Below the pieces are notes generated by a model, which saw only the letters and a program-made list of their open reading frames with translations, ran no database searches and was not told the DNA's origin. A stretch of 10,580 nucleotides of DNA from a candidate division WOR-3 bacterium. GTDB lineage: Bacteria > Hydrothermota > Tepidihabitantia > SM23-42 > JAOAFX01. Location: contig JBBILZ010000068.1 in NCBI GenBank assembly GCA_037444665.1, positions 1-10,580 of the forward strand, written 5' to 3'. Position numbers and translations under genes: made by a program. Below, piece by piece: positions 152 through 7,661 of this stretch (its first letter is position 1; every line of letters begins with the position of its first letter).

Positions 152-201
152 GCAATGGTTGTAAAGGATTAGCACGGGTCATTCTCTTGGAGTCTTTATG
201 A
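148..201 (+). other. Junction scar / 17-aa mini-ORF (MSNGCKGLARVILLESL) resembling the fused left and right ends of the four-helix-bundle cassette
   Basis: 164-183 AAGGATTAGCACGGGTCATT matches 747-766 AAGGGTTAGCAAGGGTCATT at 18/20. It ends in TTGGAGTCTTTATG, like 1243-1256 TTGGAGGTTTTATG. ATGA overlaps with both neighbouring genes. Confidence 0.55.
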
Positions 202-731
202 TTGAAATATATCTGTTTTTGGTTTTTATGATTATCGCCGCAATTATTGCGATTGAAATAAAAGATTTGCTTGCTGCTGAATTGCTGTTGGAGCCAGTAG
301 GTTTTTCTGTGGCGATTCTATTTATCATTTTGCAGGCACCGGATCTGGCTATTGTGCAGATTGTGGTAGAGATTCTTACAGTTATTATCTTTGTTGCAGT
401 TATTTTCCGGACCGCGGATATTGATGAGACACTAACAAAAAAATTCTCACCTTTTCAGACCTCAGGCATTGTCTTTTATGGATTCTTTGTGGTGTTGTTT
501 ATATTAATAATGGAAAAACTTTTCACTCAATTACCAACATTTGGTTCACCAATAATGAAAGTTGCGAGTGAATATATTAAAATGGGACTCTATAAAGTTG
601 GTGGTGCAAATATTGTAGCAGATATTATTCTTGATTTTCGCGGTCTTGATACCTTAGGTGAGGCGACTGTGCTCTTTACCTCGGTCATCGGCGTGCTCGT
701 GGTGATGAGGAAGATAGGGAAGAAGATATGA
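198..731 (+). CDS. Mrp/Mbh membrane subunit, DUF4040 (MbhD-like) fused to an MbhE-like domain
   Basis: Hydrophobic N-terminal region with the APDLAIVQIVVE motif; C-terminal NIVADIILDFRGLDTLGEATVL motif (DFRxxDTxGE); GGAG RBS at 189-192. Confidence 0.85.
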   Translation: MIEIYLFLVFMIIAAIIAIEIKDLLAAELLLEPVGFSVAILFIILQAPDLAIVQIVVEILTVIIFVAVIFRTADIDETLTKKFSPFQTSGIVFYGFFVVLFILIMEKLFTQLPTFGSPIMKVASEYIKMGLYKVGGANIVADIILDFRGLDTLGEATVLFTSVIGVLVVMRKIGKKI

Positions 732-1135
732 ATAATAAGGGTAATCAAGGGTTAGCAAGGGTCATTAAGGGTAATCAGGGGTACAAAAAATTAGTAGTAT
801 GGCGTAATGCATGTGAATTAAGGATGTTCATCTACAAACTCACCAAAAACTTCTCCAGACAAGAATTTAAAAGAACTTCGCAGATGAACGATAGCGCAAT
901 GTCAGTAAAACAAAATATTCAGGAAGGTTATGCCCGTAGGTCTCTTGCTGAGTATATTCATTTTCTTAGCATCGCTCAAGGTTCATTAAGTGAATTGTTG
1001 GGTGACTTAGAAGATTGTTATGTAGATGGACTAATCTCTGAAAGTGATTTTAATTATGGAGAAAAACTGATAGGAAGAACAGATTATCTTTTTATGCGGT
1101 TAATCCAATCATTGAAGAGAAAAAAGGAGCAATAA
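728..1135 (+). CDS. Four-helix-bundle protein, copy 1 (TIGR02436 / 23S rRNA IVS-protein / Avd-like family)
   Basis: Family motifs YKKLVVW, SQMNDSAMSVKQNIQEG and FLSIAQGSLSEL. ATGA overlap with the upstream stop. The N-terminus is encoded by the left repeat arm. Confidence 0.9.
   Translation: MNNKGNQGLARVIKGNQGYKKLVVWRNACELRMFIYKLTKNFSRQEFKRTSQMNDSAMSVKQNIQEGYARRSLAEYIHFLSIAQGSLSELLGDLEDCYVDGLISESDFNYGEKLIGRTDYLFMRLIQSLKRKKEQ
736..783 (+). repeat. Cassette 1 left arm: five ~10-bp units (consensus YAAGGGTMAT)
   Basis: TAAGGGTAAT CAAGGGTTAG CAAGGGTCAT TAAGGGTAAT CAGGGGTA; G-tracts at 739, 749, 759, 769 and 778. Confidence 0.9.
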
Positions 1136-1190
1136 ACTATGGATTATCAGCACCTGTTATGGTTAATCAGAAACTCCGAGGGTGCTCTAT

Positions 1191-1242
1191 TTGCTCCCTT
1201 AATTACCCTTGATTCCCCTTTATTCCCCCTTATTCCCCTTAC
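1191..1242 (-). repeat. Cassette 1 right arm: five ~10-bp C-tract units, imperfect reverse complement of the left arm
   Basis: TTGCTCCCTT AATTACCCTT GATTCCCCTT TATTCCCCCT TATTCCCCTT; ATTACCCTT is the reverse complement of AAGGGTAAT. It ends immediately before the RBS TTGGAGG at 1243-1249. Confidence 0.9.
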
Positions 1243-1253
1243 TTGGAGGTTTT

Positions 1254-1685
1254 ATGAGTTTGATCGTTAAACGAATTACAAATCTTATCAGTGGATTTAT
1301 ATTTATGTATGGTATTTATATTATTCTTCATGGTCATCTTACACCGGGTAGTGGATTTGCCGGCGGAGTGATAATAGCAGGTGCATTGATATTAAGGGTA
1401 TTTGCCTTTGGAAGTGGTGCTGAAAAAGAGAAAAAGTCTTCAATTTTTGGTTCAGTATTTGAAAGTATTGGTGGTCTTATTTTCTGGGGTGCCGCATTTA
1501 CTGGTCTTTTGGTTGCGGGTGTCTTCTTTTTGAATGCACCCATATTTGGCCTTGGAAAGCCTTTGCATTTACTGAGTGCGGGTTTGATACCAATATGCAA
1601 CATTGCCATCGGTATAAAGGTTGCTGCGGGTCTATTCTCTATTTTCCTTGCCTTTGCTGCAATAAAATATTTGATGGAGGATTGA
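1254..1685 (+). CDS. mnhB: Na+/H+ antiporter subunit B / MbhF-like
   Basis: HGHLTPGSGFAGG motif (consensus HGHxxPGGGFxGG), ESIGG and IKVAAG. Start moved from TTG 1209 (inside the repeat arm) to ATG 1254 behind GGAGG. Confidence 0.9.
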   Translation: MSLIVKRITNLISGFIFMYGIYIILHGHLTPGSGFAGGVIIAGALILRVFAFGSGAEKEKKSSIFGSVFESIGGLIFWGAAFTGLLVAGVFFLNAPIFGLGKPLHLLSAGLIPICNIAIGIKVAAGLFSIFLAFAAIKYLMED

Positions 1686-2023
1686 TGATTATCTTTGCCA
1701 GTTGTGTAATATTATTTCTGATCGGTCTTTATGCGGTGGTGGTAAAGCGAAATTTAATAAAAATTGCTATAGGATTTGCGATTATGGAATATGCAGTGAA
1801 CCTTTTATTTGCGCTGATCGGCTTCAAAAAGGGTGCGATTGCACCGATCATTACAAAACTTGATATGCCGCATAATTTTGTTGACCCAATCCCGCAGGCA
1901 CTTGTTCTTACTGCAATTGTGATTGGTCTGGGAACTACTGCGCTACTACTCTCATTCATCGTCCGCATATACGAAAAATATAAGACAATGGATGTGGGAG
2001 AAATCAAAAAATTAAAGGGCTAA
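1685..2023 (+). CDS. mnhC: Na+/H+ antiporter subunit C / MbhG (NuoK-like)
   Basis: RNLIKIAIG and DPIPQALVLTAIVIG motifs. ATG 1685 overlaps the mnhB stop (TGATG), with GGAGGA at 1676-1681. Confidence 0.93.
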   Translation: MIIFASCVILFLIGLYAVVVKRNLIKIAIGFAIMEYAVNLLFALIGFKKGAIAPIITKLDMPHNFVDPIPQALVLTAIVIGLGTTALLLSFIVRIYEKYKTMDVGEIKKLKG

Positions 2024-2139
2024 AAAGAAGGGGTGAAGAAGGGTAAAAAAGGGTGAAGAAGGGTAAAAAGGGGAGAGAAAACAAGAATGGGTGAAGAAGG
2101 GAAAAGAAGGATTAAAAAGGGCGAAGAGGAGAAAAAAGG
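2024..2139 (+). repeat. Cassette 2 left arm: purine-rich 10-bp units (AAGGGTGAAG/AAGGGTAAAA)
   Basis: Starts at the mnhC stop codon. Five phased G-tracts at 2030, 2041, 2051, 2061 and 2070, then degenerate units to about 2139. Confidence 0.9.
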
Positions 2140-2527
2140 CTTGATGGGAAAGGGGTATATGAAGCTCATTGTCTGGAGGAATGCGTGTGAATTGCGTCGG
2201 CTCATATTTAACATCACCAAGAGGTTTTCTTATAAAGAATTTCGCCGCGCATCGCAAATGAATGATAGCGCAAGGTCTATTAAGCAAAATATCCAGGAAG
2301 GATATAAGAGGACATCTATAAAAGAATATATACATCACCTGTCAATTGCACAAGGTTCATTGGGTGAACTTTCCGGGGATGTAGATGATTGCTTTGAAGA
2401 TAAACTTATAATGGAAGAGGAATATAATAGAATTGATAACTTAATTAAGAGGACTGATTATCTATTTATGAGGTTAATTCAATCATTAAACAACAAAATA
2501 AAAAGGGGTAGACAATGTTTGGATTGA
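2087..2527 (+). CDS. Four-helix-bundle protein, copy 2 (TIGR02436 family)
   Basis: Same motifs as copy 1; 77/112 identical residues (about 69%, ungapped, counted by hand) over GY...IQSL. The start could alternatively be ATG 2144. Confidence 0.9.
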   Translation: MGEEGKRRIKKGEEEKKGLMGKGYMKLIVWRNACELRRLIFNITKRFSYKEFRRASQMNDSARSIKQNIQEGYKRTSIKEYIHHLSIAQGSLGELSGDVDDCFEDKLIMEEEYNRIDNLIKRTDYLFMRLIQSLNNKIKRGRQCLD

Positions 2528-2556
2528 AATCCGGCTTTCCCCTTGTTTATCTATCA

Positions 2557-2626
2557 TTCCCCCTCTTTACCTCTCTTTACCCCTCTTTCCCCCTCTTTCC
2601 CCGTCTTTACCCCTTTTTACCCCTTT
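2557..2626 (-). repeat. Cassette 2 right arm: about seven 10-bp pyrimidine units (CCCTCTTTAC-like), complementary to left arm 2
   Basis: CCCTCTTTAC CTCTCTTTAC CCCTCTTTCC CCCTCTTTCC CCGTCTTTAC CCCTTTTTAC CCCTTT; ends 4 bp before the RBS TTGGAGG at 2631-2637. Confidence 0.9.
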
Positions 2627-2642
2627 GTAATTGGAGGTATTT

Positions 2643-4130
2643 ATGACTTTTCTGCCACTCCTTTTTGCTTTGCCCTTATTGGGTGCATTTTTAATACCGC
2701 TGCTGTCTAAATTATGGAAACCTTTTGCTCCACTTATCGGAAATGTTATATCATTTGTGTTATTTATTCTCGCACTTTATGGTATTGCAATTACCCAGGC
2801 AGTTCCTATGGTTGTGTACAAGTTTGGTAACTGGCCACCACCCATTGGTATTGTCTTTGGTTTTGATTCATTTTCTGCTTTTATGGTTCTTGTTATTTCA
2901 ATTGTTGTTTTCACTGGGGCTATTTTTGCTGTCAGTTATTTGAAACATTATACGGGTCAATGGAAGTTCTGGACCCTTTATATGTTGATAACAGCAGGGT
3001 TGATGGGAATCTCAATTACCGGTGACCTATTCAATATGTTTGTCTGGATTGAAATATCTGCTATTGCATCCTATGCCCTGGTCAGTTTTGGTATTGAACA
3101 TGAAGAACTTGAGGCGGCATTTAAATATATGGTGATGGGTGAGATCGGAGGTATGACATTACTTTTGACCATCGCCTTGATCTACGCAAAGACCTCTACT
3201 CTAAACCTCGCAGACATCGGAAATTCATTACAGGAAATTAAAAATACTACATTCTACTGGTCCATCCTCGGGCTTTTATTATTCGCCTTCTCAATCAAAG
3301 CAGCACTTGTGCCATTCCATTTCTGGCTCCCTGATGCGCATCCATCAGCACCAGCACCAATTTCAAGTTTGCTCTCGGGAATATTTATTAAGGTTTTAGG
3401 GATCTATACGAGTGCCCGACTCATATTTAATATCTTTGGGCTAAGCAGGGAAAATGCACCATTCTTTTTTAATATATTGCTCGGGATTGGCTTATTGTCT
3501 ATAATCTTTGCTGGTATCACTGCATTGAACCAGAACGATTATAAGCGCCTGCTCGGTTATTCCACTGTCTCACAGATTGGTTATATAATGCTTGGGCTGG
3601 GGATTGGTAATTTCTATGGTGTGGCAGGTGCAATACTTTATATCCTGGCACATGGTGTATCAAAGGCATTGCTCTTTTTGACATCTGGTTCAGTAGTCTA
3701 TGCAACAGGGGAGAGGGATATAAATAAACTCGGAGGTCTGGGTGAAGCAATGCCCACAACTGCTTGGAGTTATAGAATTGGTGCACTTTCACTCATTGGA
3801 TTGCCACCACTTGTAGGATTCTTTGCCAAGTTTCTCATTGCCCTGGGTGCAATAAAACAGGGATTTTTGTGGCTGGCAATCGTTGCCATAGGATTCAGTG
3901 GAGTTACACTCGGTTATCTATTAAAGATTGAGAATAATGTCTATATGAAAAAGAATGGAGCGCAGGTTAAAGAATCACCTTTTCTTATGCGTGTAGCAAT
4001 GGTATTACTTGTGATTCTGATAATTATCCTTGGTATTGGTTATAAGCCGATATTTGATTTTGTCATTCAACCAGCAACCGAAGCATTGCTCAGGGGCACT
4101 GAATATATCAACTTAATTTTTGGTGGATGA
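2643..4130 (+). CDS. mnhD: Na+/H+ antiporter subunit D / MbhH (proton-conducting membrane transporter)
   Basis: GNWPPPIGI, TGDLFNMFVWIEI, KAALVPFHFWLPDAHPSAP, KRLLGYSTVSQIGY and GLPPLVGFFAK motifs; ATG 2643 follows GGAGG. Confidence 0.93.
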   Translation: MTFLPLLFALPLLGAFLIPLLSKLWKPFAPLIGNVISFVLFILALYGIAITQAVPMVVYKFGNWPPPIGIVFGFDSFSAFMVLVISIVVFTGAIFAVSYLKHYTGQWKFWTLYMLITAGLMGISITGDLFNMFVWIEISAIASYALVSFGIEHEELEAAFKYMVMGEIGGMTLLLTIALIYAKTSTLNLADIGNSLQEIKNTTFYWSILGLLLFAFSIKAALVPFHFWLPDAHPSAPAPISSLLSGIFIKVLGIYTSARLIFNIFGLSRENAPFFFNILLGIGLLSIIFAGITALNQNDYKRLLGYSTVSQIGYIMLGLGIGNFYGVAGAILYILAHGVSKALLFLTSGSVVYATGERDINKLGGLGEAMPTTAWSYRIGALSLIGLPPLVGFFAKFLIALGAIKQGFLWLAIVAIGFSGVTLGYLLKIENNVYMKKNGAQVKESPFLMRVAMVLLVILIIILGIGYKPIFDFVIQPATEALLRGTEYINLIFGG

Positions 4131-4151: not shown

Positions 4152-4637
4152 ATGAAGTATGTTATCTATTTCATAGTTAGTTTTGCCCTGTGGTTATTAT
4201 TGACATTAACGACAAATATAGACCATTTGATTGTAGGTGCCATTGTTGCGCTTCTGGGAACCATATTCTTTGGTGGTTATTTCACAGATAGACCGAAAAA
4301 ATTATTACAACCGCATCGTCTATTCTGGTTAATTGTCTATATTCCGGTATTCATCTGGTATATGGTCAAGGCAAATCTTGATGTTGCATACAGAACACTC
4401 CACCCAGAAAGGCCCCTTAATCCAGGAATTGTAAAGATAAAGACAAATCTGAAATCAGATACTGCAAAGGTCTTTCTCGCCAATTCTATTACACTTACAC
4501 CTGGCACGATGACCGTGGATATTGATGGTGATTATCTTTACATACACTGGATCTATGTGCAGGCAAGTGATATTGATGGAGCATCAAAGATTATTGCCCG
4601 TCCTTTTGAGAAGTTTTTAAGGAGGATCTTTGATTGA
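4152..4637 (+). CDS. mnhE: Na+/H+ antiporter subunit E / MbhA
   Basis: KANLDVA, PGIVKI, LANSITLTPGT and LYIHWI motifs; GGAG RBS at 4141-4144. Confidence 0.95.
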   Translation: MKYVIYFIVSFALWLLLTLTTNIDHLIVGAIVALLGTIFFGGYFTDRPKKLLQPHRLFWLIVYIPVFIWYMVKANLDVAYRTLHPERPLNPGIVKIKTNLKSDTAKVFLANSITLTPGTMTVDIDGDYLYIHWIYVQASDIDGASKIIARPFEKFLRRIFD

Positions 4638-4817
4638 AATTCGAAATTCGAAATCCGAAATTCGAAATAAATTCCAAATTCTAAATTCTAATCTCCAAAG
4701 CAGTTTTGGATTTAAATATTGTTTCGGATTTCGTGCTTCGGATTTAGGATTTTATAGCAGGAGGATCTTTGATTGAAATTCGAAATCCGAAATCCGAAAT
4801 TCGAAATAAATTTCAAA
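4620..4817 (+). repeat. 59-bp direct repeat (4620-4678 and 4759-4817, 57/59 identical) containing the mnhE 3' end plus a GAAATYC heptamer array
   Basis: AGGAGGATCTTTGATTGAAATTCGAAATYCGAAATCCGAAATTCGAAATAAATTYCAAA occurs twice, offset by 139 bp. Confidence 0.95.
4636..4753. repeat. Cargo-less heptamer inverted-repeat element (left GAAATYC/AAATTCT array; right TTCGGATTTCGTGCTTCGGATTTAGGATTT)
   Basis: The right part (about 4705-4753) is the imperfect reverse complement of the 7-bp array at 4636-4699, giving a long hairpin between mnhE and mnhF. Confidence 0.85.
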
Positions 4818-4851
4818 CCCGATTTATCGGGAGTATGATAAGGAGTTCGTT

Positions 4852-5106: not shown

Positions 5107-5458
5107 CCCTATAGGTTGGATAATAATCTGGATTGGCATTCTTTTCAATCTTCTTGGAACCATAGGCCTTGTGAGGTTCCCTGATATTTATAACCGCCTC
5201 CAGACTTCAACAAAGTGTGTCACACTCGGTTCATTTGGATTAATGATAGGAATCTTTTTACTTTACGGTTTTACCCAAACTGGAATCAAGGCATTGATCT
5301 GCGGTGCATTTTTATTATTAACCAATCCTGTCGGTGCACATGCCTTGCTCAAGGGTTCGCTACATTATGGTATAAAATTGTGGAAGGGTTCGGTTGTTGA
5401 TAAGTATGGCGAAGAGAAACTCGGTGGAGAACGAATAGAAAAGGGTGAAGATGGGTAA
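5099..5458 (+). CDS. mnhG: Na+/H+ antiporter subunit G / MbhC
   Basis: GLVRFPDIYNRLQTSTKCVTLG and LTNPVGAHAL motifs; AGGAG at 5089-5093; start is ATG 5099 or TTG 5096. The last codons run into a purine repeat arm. Confidence 0.93.
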   Translation: MINPIGWIIIWIGILFNLLGTIGLVRFPDIYNRLQTSTKCVTLGSFGLMIGIFLLYGFTQTGIKALICGAFLLLTNPVGAHALLKGSLHYGIKLWKGSVVDKYGEEKLGGERIEKGEDG

Positions 5459-5519
5459 AAAGGGGTAAAAAAGGGTGAAAAAGGGGAGGAAACAAAAATG
5501 GGTGAAAAGGGATATAAAA
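5438..5519 (+). pseudogene. Orphan cassette-2-type left arm with the first codons (MGEKGYK) of a truncated four-helix-bundle gene
   Basis: Five phased G-tracts at 5443, 5453, 5462, 5473 and 5483. AAGGGGAGGAAACAAAAATGGGTGAA resembles 2068-2095. ATG 5498 reads MGEKGYK (compare GYKKL and GKGYMKL), then breaks at a GTAG palindrome. Confidence 0.65.
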
Positions 5520-5545
5520 GTAGGGACAAGGCTTGTCCTTGTCCG
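5520..5545 (+). repeat. REP-like palindrome with 5' GTAG
   Basis: GTAG-GGACAAGG-CTTGT-CCTTGTCC (8-bp stem); degenerate relative GTAGACAAGGCTTTTCCTTG at 6443-6462. Confidence 0.7.
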
Positions 5546-5573
5546 AGATGAATGAGGATAAACAGGAGGCAGA

Positions 5574-6179: not shown

Positions 6180-6193
6180 AAAATAGTCTAAGG

Positions 6194-6355
6194 TTATTGG
6201 GTGGGGATGCTGGTTTGGTTATAGGGCATGGTTTATGGTCAAAAAAATACCTATTGAGGAGAGTACTTTCATTCAATAATTTTAGGTATTTAGGTATTTT
6301 GGACTTTTAGGTATTTTAACTTATTGGGCATAGATGCTGGTTTGGTTAAAGGCAT
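6194..6355 (+). repeat. Imperfect ~36-bp direct repeat (6194-6229 / 6321-6355) enclosing a TTAGGTAT 8-mer array (6281-6317)
   Basis: TTATTGGG-N4-GATGCTGGTTTGGTTA(TAG/AA)GGCAT occurs twice, offset by 127 bp. Confidence 0.8.
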
Positions 6356-6365
6356 CCTTCCAATA

Positions 6366-6428
6366 TCACCCTGAATTATTTCTGGACTTGTTTTAGGGTT
6401 TTCTTTGTGCGATGAATCGCACCGCTAC
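6366..6428 (+). repeat. Composite palindromic repeat, copy A (TCACCCTGAA...CTTGTTTTAGGGT + REP-like GTGCGATGAATCGCACCGCTAC)
   Basis: Direct repeat of 7401-7474. The REP part reads GTAG-CG-GTGCGAT-TC-ATCGCAC on the minus strand. Confidence 0.8.
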
Positions 6429-6480
6429 GATGAATTTATATTGTAGACAAGGCTTTTCCTTGAAAGCCTGCACAAACTAC

Positions 6481-6508
6481 TTGACTATATCATAATTAAG
6501 CATATAAT
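6481..6508 (+). promoter_or_regulatory. Sigma70-type promoter of the TA operon
   Basis: TTGACT (6481-6486), 16-bp spacer, TATAAT (6503-6508); RBS AAGGAGG at 6516-6522. Confidence 0.75.
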
Positions 6509-6528
6509 CAACCATAAGGAGGTCTTTA

Positions 6529-6750
6529 ATGGGCATATCATTGCATATACCGGACATAAACCTGAAAGAGGATGAAGTCAAACTTTTATTAGCGATAAAG
6601 CTCTTTGAAGAGGGTATAGTTTCTCTTGGTAGGGCGGCTGAGATAGCAGGGTATTCTGAAAAATCCTTTGTTGAAATTTTGCTTCATAGAGGGATATCCC
6701 CAATAAAGTATGAAGATATTTCAATTAATAAAGAGTTAAGTAATGCCTGA
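6529..6750 (+). CDS. UPF0175-family protein, putative antitoxin
   Basis: 73 aa with LAIKLFEEGIVSLGRAAEIAG...FVEILLHRGI, typical of UPF0175; overlaps the PIN gene. Confidence 0.88.
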   Translation: MGISLHIPDINLKEDEVKLLLAIKLFEEGIVSLGRAAEIAGYSEKSFVEILLHRGISPIKYEDISINKELSNA

Positions 6751-7192
6751 TGCCATAGTAATTGATACATCTGCGCTAATTGCCCTTGAAAAACTTGGAC
6801 TCCTATCATTACTATGTAATATTTACACTGAAGTTATTGTTCCGGAATCAGTTATAAAAGAATTTGGAGATATTTCTTTGCCATGCATTTCAGTTAAAAA
6901 AGTGGAAAGTAATCTGGTTAAATTACTGGTTACCGATTTAAATTTAGGGGAAGGTGAGGCAGAAGCAATTGCTTTAGCAAATGAGTCTGAACTAAGATTG
7001 ATGATTGACGAGGTAAAAGCACGGAGAATAGCAGAGGATATGGGATTAAAAATAACCGGAACAATCGGTTTCCTTATAAAAGCCCAAAAATTTGGTCTAA
7101 TCAAAAGTGCTTACGAAAAAGTAAAAGAACTTAAAGAAAAAGGTTTTTATATCGCAGATAATTTAATAGAAGAAATTAAAAATTTATCTTAG
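6743..7192 (+). CDS. PIN-domain / DUF3368-type (COG2405-like) putative toxin
   Basis: IVIDTSALIAL, VPESVIKE, LGEGEAEAIALA, LMIDEVKARRIA and GTIGFL motifs; 8-bp overlap with the antitoxin gene. Confidence 0.88.
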   Translation: MPDAIVIDTSALIALEKLGLLSLLCNIYTEVIVPESVIKEFGDISLPCISVKKVESNLVKLLVTDLNLGEGEAEAIALANESELRLMIDEVKARRIAEDMGLKITGTIGFLIKAQKFGLIKSAYEKVKELKEKGFYIADNLIEEIKNLS

Positions 7193-7257
7193 TTGAATTT
7201 TTCCTTTTAAATTACATTTCAGTGCTTTCATTATCTCATAGATACTTCTGAATGTTG

Positions 7258-7338
7258 AGATTCTTCGCCCGCCACTCTGTGTGGCGGGCGAAGAATGACA
7301 ACCTACCTTTTTGTCATTCTGAACGAAGTGAAGAATCT
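7258..7338. repeat. Inverted pair of TTGTCATTCTGAACGAAGTGAAGAATCT-type repeats; the left copy contains a perfect 16-bp-stem hairpin
   Basis: ATTCTTCGCCCGCCAC (7260-7275) pairs with GTGGCGGGCGAAGAAT (7281-7296). AGATTCTTC...AGAATGACAA (7258-7301) is the reverse complement of the ends of 7311-7338. Confidence 0.85.
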
Positions 7339-7400
7339 ATGGGGTTTTCAAGGGGTTTACCCCTTGATGATGTTCTTTCAGGCTTTCCGCCTCCCTCTCG

Positions 7401-7474
7401 TCACCCTGAACCCTGGCCTGACGCCAGGACAGGCTTGTTTCGGGTCTTCTTTGTGCGATAAATCGCACCGCTAC
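7401..7474 (+). repeat. Composite palindromic repeat, copy B, with internal CCTGGC-CTGAC-GCCAGG hairpin
   Basis: TCACCCTGAA...CTTGTTTCGGGTCTTCTTTGTGCGATAAATCGCACCGCTAC matches 6366-6428. Confidence 0.8.
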
Positions 7475-7480
7475 AATTCT

Positions 7481-7530
7481 CCTGATACCCTGCTCCCCTG
7501 ATTCCCCTTGATAACCCTTGATTCCCTTTT
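7481..7530 (-). repeat. Orphan cassette-1-type right arm
   Basis: TGCTCCCCTG ATTCCCCTTG ATAACCCTTG ATTCCCTTTT; its reverse complement AAGGGAATCAAGGGTTATCAAGGGGAATCAGGGG closely resembles 737-781. Confidence 0.8.
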
Positions 7531-7563
7531 AGGCATTTAGGTATTTAGGCATTTTGGACTTTA
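7528..7563 (+). repeat. TTAGGYAT 8-mer array, second copy of 6281-6307
   Basis: TTTAGGCATTTAGGTATTTAGGCATTTTGGACTTT versus TTTAGGTATTTAGGTATTTTGGACTTT. Confidence 0.8.
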
Positions 7564-7633
7564 ATCACCATACCGGTTGCCACGCCCTATAACCATTTAC
7601 CATTTTCTTGGGGTTAAACCCTGCTCAAAACCC

Positions 7634-7661
7634 TTGACTGCTTTTATTTTTTTTGTATAAT
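7634..7661 (+). promoter_or_regulatory. Sigma70-type promoter of the SBP/kinase operon
   Basis: TTGACT (7634-7639), 16-bp spacer, TATAAT (7656-7661). Confidence 0.7.

Follow-up and report, generated by a model that had tools for sequence, protein, structure and literature searches.

How does an inserted gene come to be enclosed by two tandem arrays that mirror each other, when the repeat unit itself differs between inserts? The question is raised by a stretch of 10,580 nucleotides (hereafter the window; contig JBBILZ010000068.1 of GenBank assembly GCA_037444665.1) from a candidate division WOR-3 bacterium, in which two small cassettes interrupt an operon encoding a Mrp/Mbh-type antiporter. 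The window is one contig of a genome of 2.54 Mb (120 contigs, 99.5% complete), referred to below as the source genome. Each cassette consists of a PF05635 gene with inverted arrays of one short unit on its left and right (the arms), lies between cistrons, and is co-oriented with the genes that flank it. The original prediction, made from the sequence of the window, was that the two arms co-vary within each cassette, either because selection maintains their pairing or because one arm is copied from the other when the element is formed. The observation of matched arms is confirmed and generalizes over two clades and 138 cassettes; the interpretation of the co-variation is partly supported. We regard the cassettes as two lineages of a selfish insert that is widespread, has hardly been described, and is akin to the intervening sequences (IVS) of ribosomal RNA (rRNA). 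If this is true, the rRNA IVS that carries an open reading frame (ORF) is just the best-known habitat of a much larger class of compact cassettes located between genes in the ordinary operons of many phyla.

Matched arms in the two cassettes

Cassette 1 occupies positions 728-1244 between the MbhD/E-like gene and mnhB, on the plus strand, which also carries the second cassette and the host genes. Its gene (728..1135) encodes a four-helix-bundle protein of the 23S rRNA IVS protein family, with matches to PF05635 (2.6e-23, 82.7 bits, cut-off 33.8) and to TIGR02436 'four helix bundle protein' (76.9 bits, cut-off 24). The ATG at 728, which probably serves as the start codon, overlaps the TGA of the MbhD/E-like gene (729-731) as ATGA. 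The left arm (733..787; about five AAGGGTAATC-type decamers, supported by Tandem Repeats Finder (TRF), an inverted repeat and the fold) begins 2 nt past this stop codon, inside the 5' end of ORF 728-1135. The right arm (1190..1244; about 4.5 GATTCCCCTT-type decamers, supported by TRF and inverted repeats) is directly followed by the GGAGG of mnhB (1245-1249).

Cassette 2 (2024-2629) lies between the NuoK-like and MrpD-like genes. Its left arm (2024..2127; supported by TRF, inverted repeats, relatives and nested pairing in the fold) begins directly after the TAA of the NuoK-like gene (2021-2023) and is composed of an outer array at 2025-2079, missing from orthologous cassettes, and an inner array at 2080-2127, which opens with CAAGAATGGGTGAAGAAGGG and is common to the orthologues. 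The gene (2087..2527), with candidate starts at ATG 2087, 2144 or 2159, again encodes a four-helix-bundle protein (PF05635, 1.4e-22, 80.4 bits, cut-off 33.8; TIGR02436, 74.3 bits, cut-off 24), and the nearest solved structure to the cassette proteins is PDB 2GSC (XCC0516 of Xanthomonas, 8.9e-10). The right arm (2535..2629; about nine CTCTTTACCC-type decamers, supported by TRF and inverted repeats) stops 3 nt short of the GGAGG of the MrpD-like gene (2633-2637; ATG 2643). Pfam detects no catalytic domain in the cassette ORFs and no integrase among the 14 main ORFs of the window, and no transposase lies inside a cassette. Clear cognate arms enclose 7 of the 10 PF05635 genes of the source genome.

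The positions and units originally predicted for the arms agree with the TRF coordinates. In cassette 1, period 10 is found at 733-783 (5.2 copies of TAATCAAGGG, which is AAGGGTAATC rotated) and at 1196-1240 (4.5 copies of CCCTTTATTC). In cassette 2, the left array at 2025-2127 has 10.4 copies at period 10 and a period-20 unit GGGTGAAGAAGGGTAAAAAA, and the right array has period 20 at 2535-2624 (4.5 copies) and period 10 at 2560-2624 (6.5 copies of CCCCTCTTTA). As predicted, the 10-nt period and a G/C core, more exactly G3/C3, recur in both unit types. The inverted repeat of cassette 1 joins 736-787 with 1190-1241 (52 nt, 73% complementary; best core 33 nt, 82%), and that of cassette 2 joins 2025-2073 with 2570-2618 (49 nt, 78%; best core 33 nt, 85%).

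The match between a right arm and the left arm of its own cassette is better than that with the left arm of the other cassette, by a moderate margin. When left (L) arms are aligned locally to the reverse complements of right (R) arms, the scores are 40 for L1-R1 and 47 for L2-R2 vs 20 for L1-R2 and 29 for L2-R1, with a background of 14-24 across the ten cassettes of the source genome. RNA duplex energies of 55-nt arms are -47.8 (L1-R1) and -58.3 kcal/mol (L2-R2) for the cognate pairs vs -36.8 (L1-R2) and -50.6 kcal/mol (L2-R1) for the swapped ones, so that the cognate sum is better by 18.7 kcal/mol and swapped arms are not equal partners as RNA. Against 200 mononucleotide shuffles of the partner, z is -5.5 and -3.8 for the cognate pairs and -2.9 for both swapped pairs. 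Two results count against the observation: swapped arms still out-pair shuffled partners, and when DNA parameters are used, the duplex of L2 with R1 (-29.3) is more stable than that with its own R2 (-25.9). The pairing of swapped arms and the moderate cognate margin are explained by the core and period that both unit types have in common. In folds of the whole-cassette RNAs, the left arm pairs with the right arm in the minimum free energy and centroid structures of both cassettes (z -2.7 and -3.7 for cassettes 1 and 2), in cassette 1 with 1190-1244. The stem of cassette 2 is two-layered, with an extra outer array on both sides that the orthologues lack.

Co-variation and its maintenance in larger sets

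The first of two larger sets comprises 63 cassettes, namely 10 from the source genome, 19 from operon loci and 34 from a search with the protein of cassette 2 (37 loci, from which 3 duplicates were dropped); their genes were re-identified with a hidden Markov model built from the copies of the source genome. The median score of cognate left and right arms is 35 vs 18 for all non-cognate pairs, and the cognate score reaches at least 30 in 47 of 63 cassettes. Just 20 of 63 rows have the cognate arm as their single best match, since arm families are shared among relatives. The ratio of cross to cognate scores is about 0.46-0.48 below 55% protein identity, 0.56 at 55-65%, 0.81 at 65-80% and 0.99 above 80%, and in a Mantel test the observed value was reached by 0 of 999 permutations. 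By RNA energies, the cognate right arm is better than every right arm from cassettes with less than 55% protein identity in 42 of 43 cases (mean -39.4 for cognate vs -13.2 kcal/mol for unrelated arms). Within the clade that includes the proteins of both window cassettes, 26 of 32 cassettes have period 10 on both arms.

The second set represents a clade with 7-nt units and was collected with a single protein query, another copy from the source genome (80 loci, 75 with sufficient flank). Here the arm family is conserved over many phyla, and the cognate median is 37 vs 31 for non-cognate pairs. Even here, the two cognate combinations together score higher than the two swapped ones in 76-94% of cassette pairs with 40-75% protein identity; the share is 65% at 75-80% and 50% at 80-90%. 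Two unit variants, CGAAA-type and CTAAA-type, are the same on both arms in 40 of 41 cassettes (29 G/G, 11 T/T, 0 G/T, 1 T/G; Fisher 3.8e-9). On the best protein tree this G/T variant changes six times, of which one change falls on supported branches; several independent co-switches are therefore not claimed, and the test is without power. No protein column convincingly tracks the variant (best 0.88 vs a baseline of 0.72).

The predicted co-variation is thus present in both clades. It is mainly found at the level of the unit family, following the protein lineage, and inside one lineage swapping the arms makes little difference to the fit. The gene and its arms move together; the arms change more quickly than the protein and remain complementary. 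Under neutral drift, the pair formed by a cassette's own arms and the cross pair formed with an orthologue are separated by equal evolution and should decay alike. The cognate fit persists while the cross fit drops to background, which supports active maintenance. When predicted pairs were mapped between orthologous cassettes (40 ordered pairs, 1403 base pairs), double-sided changes numbered 98 vs 40.5 expected under independence, and 55 of them keep pairing; because periodic arrays are difficult to align with certainty, they should not be read as clean compensatory events. One-sided changes kept the pair 103 times and broke it 178 times. Permuting the order of units in one arm worsens the fit (p<0.05 in 8 of 24 cassettes, mean z 1.76; p=0.03 for cassette 2 of the window), and the arms therefore mirror each other beyond their consensus.

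Of the two mechanisms originally proposed, maintained pairing is thus favored by the persistent cognate fit and the double changes, while copying of one arm from the other at formation is unlikely. Near-perfect long arms are absent from all 138 cassettes. In one cassette (L073), the left arm consists of six CGGTTACCAA units and the reverse complement of the right arm of five ACAGTTACTA units, which differ at 3 of 10 positions, and in another (L023) every left unit has ..AACAA where every right unit has ..AATAA. The arrays are homogenized separately in each arm, and the arms are not fresh copies of each other.

Insertion sites and solitary arrays

Pfam assigns the operon the order MbhD/E-like, MnhB, NuoK-like, MrpD-like, MnhE, MrpF and MnhG. 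Bordering the cassettes are the genes of an MbhD/MbhE-like antiporter subunit (198..731; PF13244 1.5e-15, PF20501 3.4e-09), an MnhB-like protein (1254-1685; PF04039 1.4e-22), a NuoK/MrpC-like protein (1685-2023; PF00420 1.1e-25) and an MrpD-like protein (2643-4130; Pfam). Three junctions of this operon were compared in the MnhB neighborhoods of 29 related genomes. The NuoK/MrpD junction holds a cassette in 10 genomes, is short and apparently empty in 14, bears a scar or gene-less hairpin in 3, and is not assessable in 2. All ten cassettes are placed between the stop codon and GGAGG; eight belong to the cassette-2 lineage (67-79% protein identity) and two to another lineage (about 35% identity, units GGCTAAAAAG / CTTTTTAGCC). 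The 14 empty junctions measure 12-15 nt and typically read TAAGGAGGCGAGT ahead of the start codon, with TGAGGAGG in two loci of the same genus and TAGGAGG in two others, and the three scarred sites hold a 37-nt remnant (in the closest relative), a lone right arm and a 146-nt gene-less hairpin.

The MbhDE/MnhB junction carries 6 cassettes, 2 of the cassette-1 lineage and 4 of another lineage (units AAGGCAATTG / CAATTGCCTT), is short and apparently empty in 22 genomes, and holds an unrelated GC-rich hairpin in one, with none not assessable. This hairpin, in L032, is an insert of 86 nt of a different kind at the junction that cassette 1 uses in the source genome. The MnhB/NuoK junction, empty in the source genome, holds 4 cassettes with 7-nt units and 3 gene-less repeat hairpins, is short and apparently empty in 21 genomes, and is not assessable in one. 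Matched-arm cassettes therefore occur at three junctions, and different lineages land on the same sites between stop codon and Shine-Dalgarno sequence.

Comparison with the sites of relatives reveals no target duplication at the two window cassettes. At the MnhB/NuoK junction of L015-L017, a cassette with arms of ACGGT-type heptamers is accompanied by an 11-nt target-like duplication, with GGAGGACTGAT on the left, GGAGGACT(A/G)ATG on the right, and GGAGGACTGATG at the empty site; the repeat represents a target duplication of 11-12 nt or else a ribosome-binding site that was rebuilt. Derivation of the arms from the target was also considered, as the 3' end of the NuoK gene (AAAGGNTAA) resembles an arm unit and pairs with the outermost right unit. 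It stays a candidate origin, although occupied and empty sites differ inconsistently and the MnhB/NuoK cassettes have unrelated units.

Cassette 1 is identical to its counterpart in the closest relative at 513 of 517 positions, and its arms at 118 of 118, whereas the host genes around it reach 96.2, 94.8 and 91.4% (72 of 1308 sites are different; Fisher 3.6e-7). The tract of low divergence spans 588 to 1264. Since the cassette is more alike than its host flanks, this region is younger than they are, suggesting recombinational exchange or re-insertion. The same relative (L012) carries about 75 nt that the source genome lacks, inserted at 183/184, just upstream of the MbhD-like gene.

Further arrays on the plus strand of the window lack a gene. 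After mnhE, an element of GAAATYC heptamers (4620..4820; TRF and repeats) is built from two left arrays with an inverted array between them, which allows two alternative hairpins; a direct duplication of 59 nt at 4620/4759 (97% identity) takes in the final 17 nt of mnhE, among them its AGGAGG. After mnhG, a solo left-arm array of cassette-2 type (5436..5511; TRF 5453-5486, repeats) has no cognate right arm that we could find, and the stretch 5436-5560 ends in ATGGGTGAAAAGGGATATAAAAG, which is similar to a cassette-2-type gene at its 5' end; the stretch appears to be what remains of a cassette that has lost its gene and right arm. A solo right-arm array of cassette-1 type (CCCTTGATT units; TRF) is located at 7476..7528 and has no left partner nearby. 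The last-named array falls in a repeat-rich stretch (6190-7640) around a toxin-antitoxin pair (UPF0175, 6529-6750; PIN/DUF3368, 6743-7192). The stretch also contains directly oriented arrays of TTTAGGYA octamers (6281-6316 and 7528-7563), direct repeats of 40 nt that carry a REP-like hairpin and a GTAG box (6392-6431 and 7438-7477), and motifs like the arms of the C4 cassette of the source genome (6194-6225, 6321-6352 and about 7570-7610).

Across the 2.5 Mb of the source genome there are 236 tandem arrays with a period of 6-22 and at least 2.8 copies; in heptamer arrays the median copy number is 4.4 (31 nt). Inverted partners were sought by aligning each array to its flanks, a census by TRF consensus being insensitive (3 pairs), and were found within 1.5 kb for 8 of the 236 arrays, 4 of which are arms of the window cassettes. 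Intergenic blocks of 300-500 nt (C2:14537-15010, C2:38775-39050, C12:34130-34450 and C94:1640-1830) string arrays together in the same order, namely AAGGGG-type decamers, GTGGATACGAAGTTGT, AGTAGGT heptamers, ACCAAATAGACC-type units and ATCCAGT, many of them arm types of the cassettes of this genome. At another PF05635 gene (L002, C9:51753-52400), the TGCAGTATC-type left arm fits the right arm of the copy on C26 (score 47) and not its own downstream region, which holds an array of small hairpins separated by CTTCC.

Explanations for the matched arms and comparison with known systems

The best explanation, to which we give an even chance, is that of an IVS-like hairpin cassette with its stem in the operon transcript. 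In this scheme, each locus is a gene bounded by a hairpin, as in the ORF-bearing 23S rRNA IVS but in an mRNA operon, inserted exactly between a stop codon and the next ribosome-binding site, on the same strand. Each of the two lineages has its own short unit inverted on both sides, and left and right arms therefore co-vary. The arms are inherited with the gene and change by point mutation and by slippage-type homogenization of each array, yet they stay complementary. Their functional form would most likely be a long, imperfect and register-tolerant stem in the transcript that loops the cassette out and brings the upstream stop codon beside the downstream Shine-Dalgarno sequence. The stem may be cut by RNase III as in the rRNA IVS, and looping or cleavage would limit the harm to the host operon.

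The evidence for selection at the RNA level is mixed. In all 43 clear-armed cassettes an upstream ORF on the same strand ends ahead of the left arm, at a median distance of 4 nt. Among 59 cassettes, the neighboring gene shares the strand of the cassette in 32 cases upstream and 34 downstream and lies opposite in 0 and 1; in all there are 66 same-strand flanks and 1 opposite, and 44 with both strands open are ambiguous. A gene for RNase III is present in the source genome. The decamer clade has an excess of G:U-type over A:C-type mismatches (95 vs 50; 29 cassettes vs 7), and the duplex is more stable in the sense direction in 31 cassettes and in the antisense direction in 11 (by protein cluster, sense in 11 of 14).

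Several observations weigh against a stem in the transcript. The window cassettes themselves have no sense-strand bias: cassette 2 is more stable as antisense (-61.1 vs -69.4), and the arms of cassette 1 are equal on both strands (-39.4 vs -39.2). Neither is there a bias in the heptamer clade (mismatches 70 vs 71, duplexes 26 vs 27), and that of the decamer clade could come from C-to-T changes of the sense strand in C-rich right arms. The stems are poor (73-85% complementary, with 178 of 323 mismatches of transversion type), and 228 of the 236 short arrays of the source genome lack an inverted partner within 1.5 kb, so that arrays also exist without pairing. Co-orientation would be equally expected if the gene merely needs host transcription.

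A distinctly less probable explanation, and a third cause besides the two originally proposed, is that the arms are recognition arrays at the DNA level, like the multiple subterminal binding sites at transposon ends, read by an oligomer of the cassette's own four-helix-bundle protein or by a host factor and serving mobility or maintenance. Left and right would then match because the same protein must read both, the unit would shift from one protein lineage to the next, and the RNA hairpin would be a by-product. Such recognition would account for conservation of the unit sequence itself: the AAATYCG/CTAAAT heptamers accompany proteins 63-77% identical to the query in many phyla, with a ratio of cross to cognate scores that stays at 0.68-0.82. 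It is also in line with the cores (GGG, GGTTA) that are conserved where linkers mismatch, the arms of L073 that were amplified separately yet kept their core, the absence of strand or wobble bias among the heptamers, the many solo arrays and the multi-array blocks of fixed order, and the 11-nt target-like duplication in L015-L017. The number of units per decamer arm is tight (median 4.6, interquartile range 4.0-5.0, n=74 arms), and the PDB entry 2GSC lists 5 chains. On the other hand, the cassette protein has no known catalytic domain and the cassette no transposase, no protein column follows the G/T variant, and the window cassettes have no target duplication. Mirrored unit order and pair-keeping double changes are needless for independent binding sites, and near-total co-orientation is not what a DNA transposon normally shows, unless its insertions are filtered by selection. 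A bolder form of DNA-level recognition, which we hold to be more doubtful still, sees each arm as an array of about five units read by the element's own oligomer, whose unit and period (10, 7 or 8 nt) would be a lineage-specific 'address' co-evolving with the protein. The cassette would then be a self-recognizing mobile element without a conventional transposase that targets stop/Shine-Dalgarno junctions and rRNA loops, and this might explain many short tandem arrays, such as the GGGAATC arrays of Xanthomonas and the cyanobacterial heptamers.

Copying or conversion in general, whether by fold-back synthesis at formation or insertion or by later hairpin repair or gene conversion, would need no selection, and seems improbable. 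It would suit the joint switching of the unit variant on both arms (up to six times on the best tree), the extra outer units that cassette 2 has on both sides at once relative to its orthologues, and the near-identity of cassette 1 in two genomes with diverged host genes, which suggests that cassette DNA was exchanged or renewed. Against this stand the lack of near-perfect long arms, the single co-switch on supported branches, and the arm differences that persist in L073 and L023, both of which inter-arm conversion would erase. Chance pairing of purine- and pyrimidine-rich repeats (G3 per 10 nt, with G-quadruplex or i-motif potential) is scarcely credible and largely refuted as the cause: although shuffled partners reach -24 to -42 kcal/mol, swapped arms z -2.9, and Xanthomonas G-rich heptamer arrays form G-quadruplexes in vitro according to the searched text of PMC4692102, cognate pairs exceed both shuffles and swapped pairs, cognate arms beat all unrelated ones in 42 of 43 cases, the Mantel test and the agreement of unit variants speak against chance, and arm families without G tracts (GAAATTC, GGTTAAT, TGCAGTATC) share the same layout. 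Since the arms are a lineage-specific and maintained pair, swapping them would directly probe processing, expression and recognition by the protein.

Several known systems share parts of this design. MITEs (miniature inverted-repeat transposable elements) and Correia-type elements are small and non-autonomous, have inverted ends and gene-less forms, and are intergenic and co-transcribed with their neighbors; Correia transcripts are reportedly cut by RNase III. The cassettes resemble them in being small, intergenic elements with inverted ends and gene-less forms. The ends of MITEs are conserved per family, are read by a transposase and are associated with fixed target duplications, whereas the cassette arms are tandem arrays that differ between lineages even within one genome, no consistent target duplication was seen, and no cognate transposase is known. 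In their arms and the lack of a known transposase, the cassettes also differ from transposons with terminal inverted repeats. The attC sites of integrons are cassette-specific imperfect inverted repeats of variable sequence with complementary halves, which are adjacent at one end of the cassette and read by the integrase as folded single-stranded DNA. The arms described here flank the gene, are tandem arrays, and are located in ordinary operons. Repetitive extragenic palindromes and the mosaic elements built from them (REP/BIME) were rejected as candidates, the arms being AT-rich tandem arrays and not a short GC-rich hairpin with a GTAG box. The accessory protein Avd of diversity-generating retroelements belongs to a homologous four-helix-bundle family; a review of these elements (PMC10053308) treats PF05635. 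The cassettes have no template or variable repeat, and this candidate is rejected, as a search of the 99.5%-complete source genome for reverse transcriptase (PF00078) gave no match.

In Xanthomonas, arrays of GGGAATC mostly have four units, lie on average 28 nt past the upstream ORF, and form 70-75 convergent inverted pairs (Rehm et al., 2015; PMC4692102, in the text searched). One of them (array no. 15, row 27 of supplementary file 2) has 4 units, begins 6 nt after bccP and extends over the start codon of XCC0516, which is the PF05635 protein of PDB 2GSC. The G-rich heptamers of Xanthomonas and Nostoc share with the cassette arms the short arrays of about four units, the intergenic position between co-oriented genes, and the proximity to the upstream ORF; they differ in that PMC4692102 reads them as G-quadruplex simple repeats, and a link to four-helix-bundle proteins is absent from the searched text. 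If the present reading is right, the cassettes would also be a source of the scattered short tandem arrays previously described as curiosities or as G-quadruplex motifs. PF05635 genes situated between cas genes have been taken as cas-associated (Zhang et al., 2013; PMC3936711), and for annotation it would follow that PF05635 genes within cas, polysaccharide or respiratory operons are probably inserts and not pathway components.

The literature that we searched on PF05635/TIGR02436, on rRNA IVS, S23p and RNase III, and on heptameric repeats yielded no description of such cassettes. Neither cassette is located in helix 9, 25 or 45 of 23S rRNA, as their flanks are Mrp/Mbh antiporter genes. No rRNA match was found in the window at E<=1 or, at gathering score, around the eight PF05635 genes outside it. 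Rfam gave no match at these eight loci and, in the window, only sub-threshold matches resembling plant and animal miRNAs on the heptamer hairpin (4624-4821).

The closest relatives are the rRNA IVS. PF05635 ORFs occur in 16S and 23S inserts of bacteria of the candidate phyla radiation (PMC11270868). The IVS of Coxiella burnetii has complementary termini that form a 28-bp stem cleaved by RNase III. Its S23p ORF is preceded by GACAGAT heptamers in 2-3 tandem copies, and the 5' cut falls at the first of these (Warrier et al., 2016; PMC4990558). As far as these sources describe them, the IVS of Coxiella and Leptospira share with the cassettes a PF05635 protein whose gene is enclosed by stem-forming complementary termini (PMC4990558), short tandem repeats upstream of the ORF, location on the sense strand of a transcribed region, and a sporadic distribution with inferred horizontal transfer. 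The cassettes differ in their position, which is a junction between stop codon and Shine-Dalgarno sequence in an mRNA operon and not an rRNA helix, and in their arms, which are imperfect tandem arrays of 45-100 nt in place of the near-perfect 28-bp stem described for the IVS.

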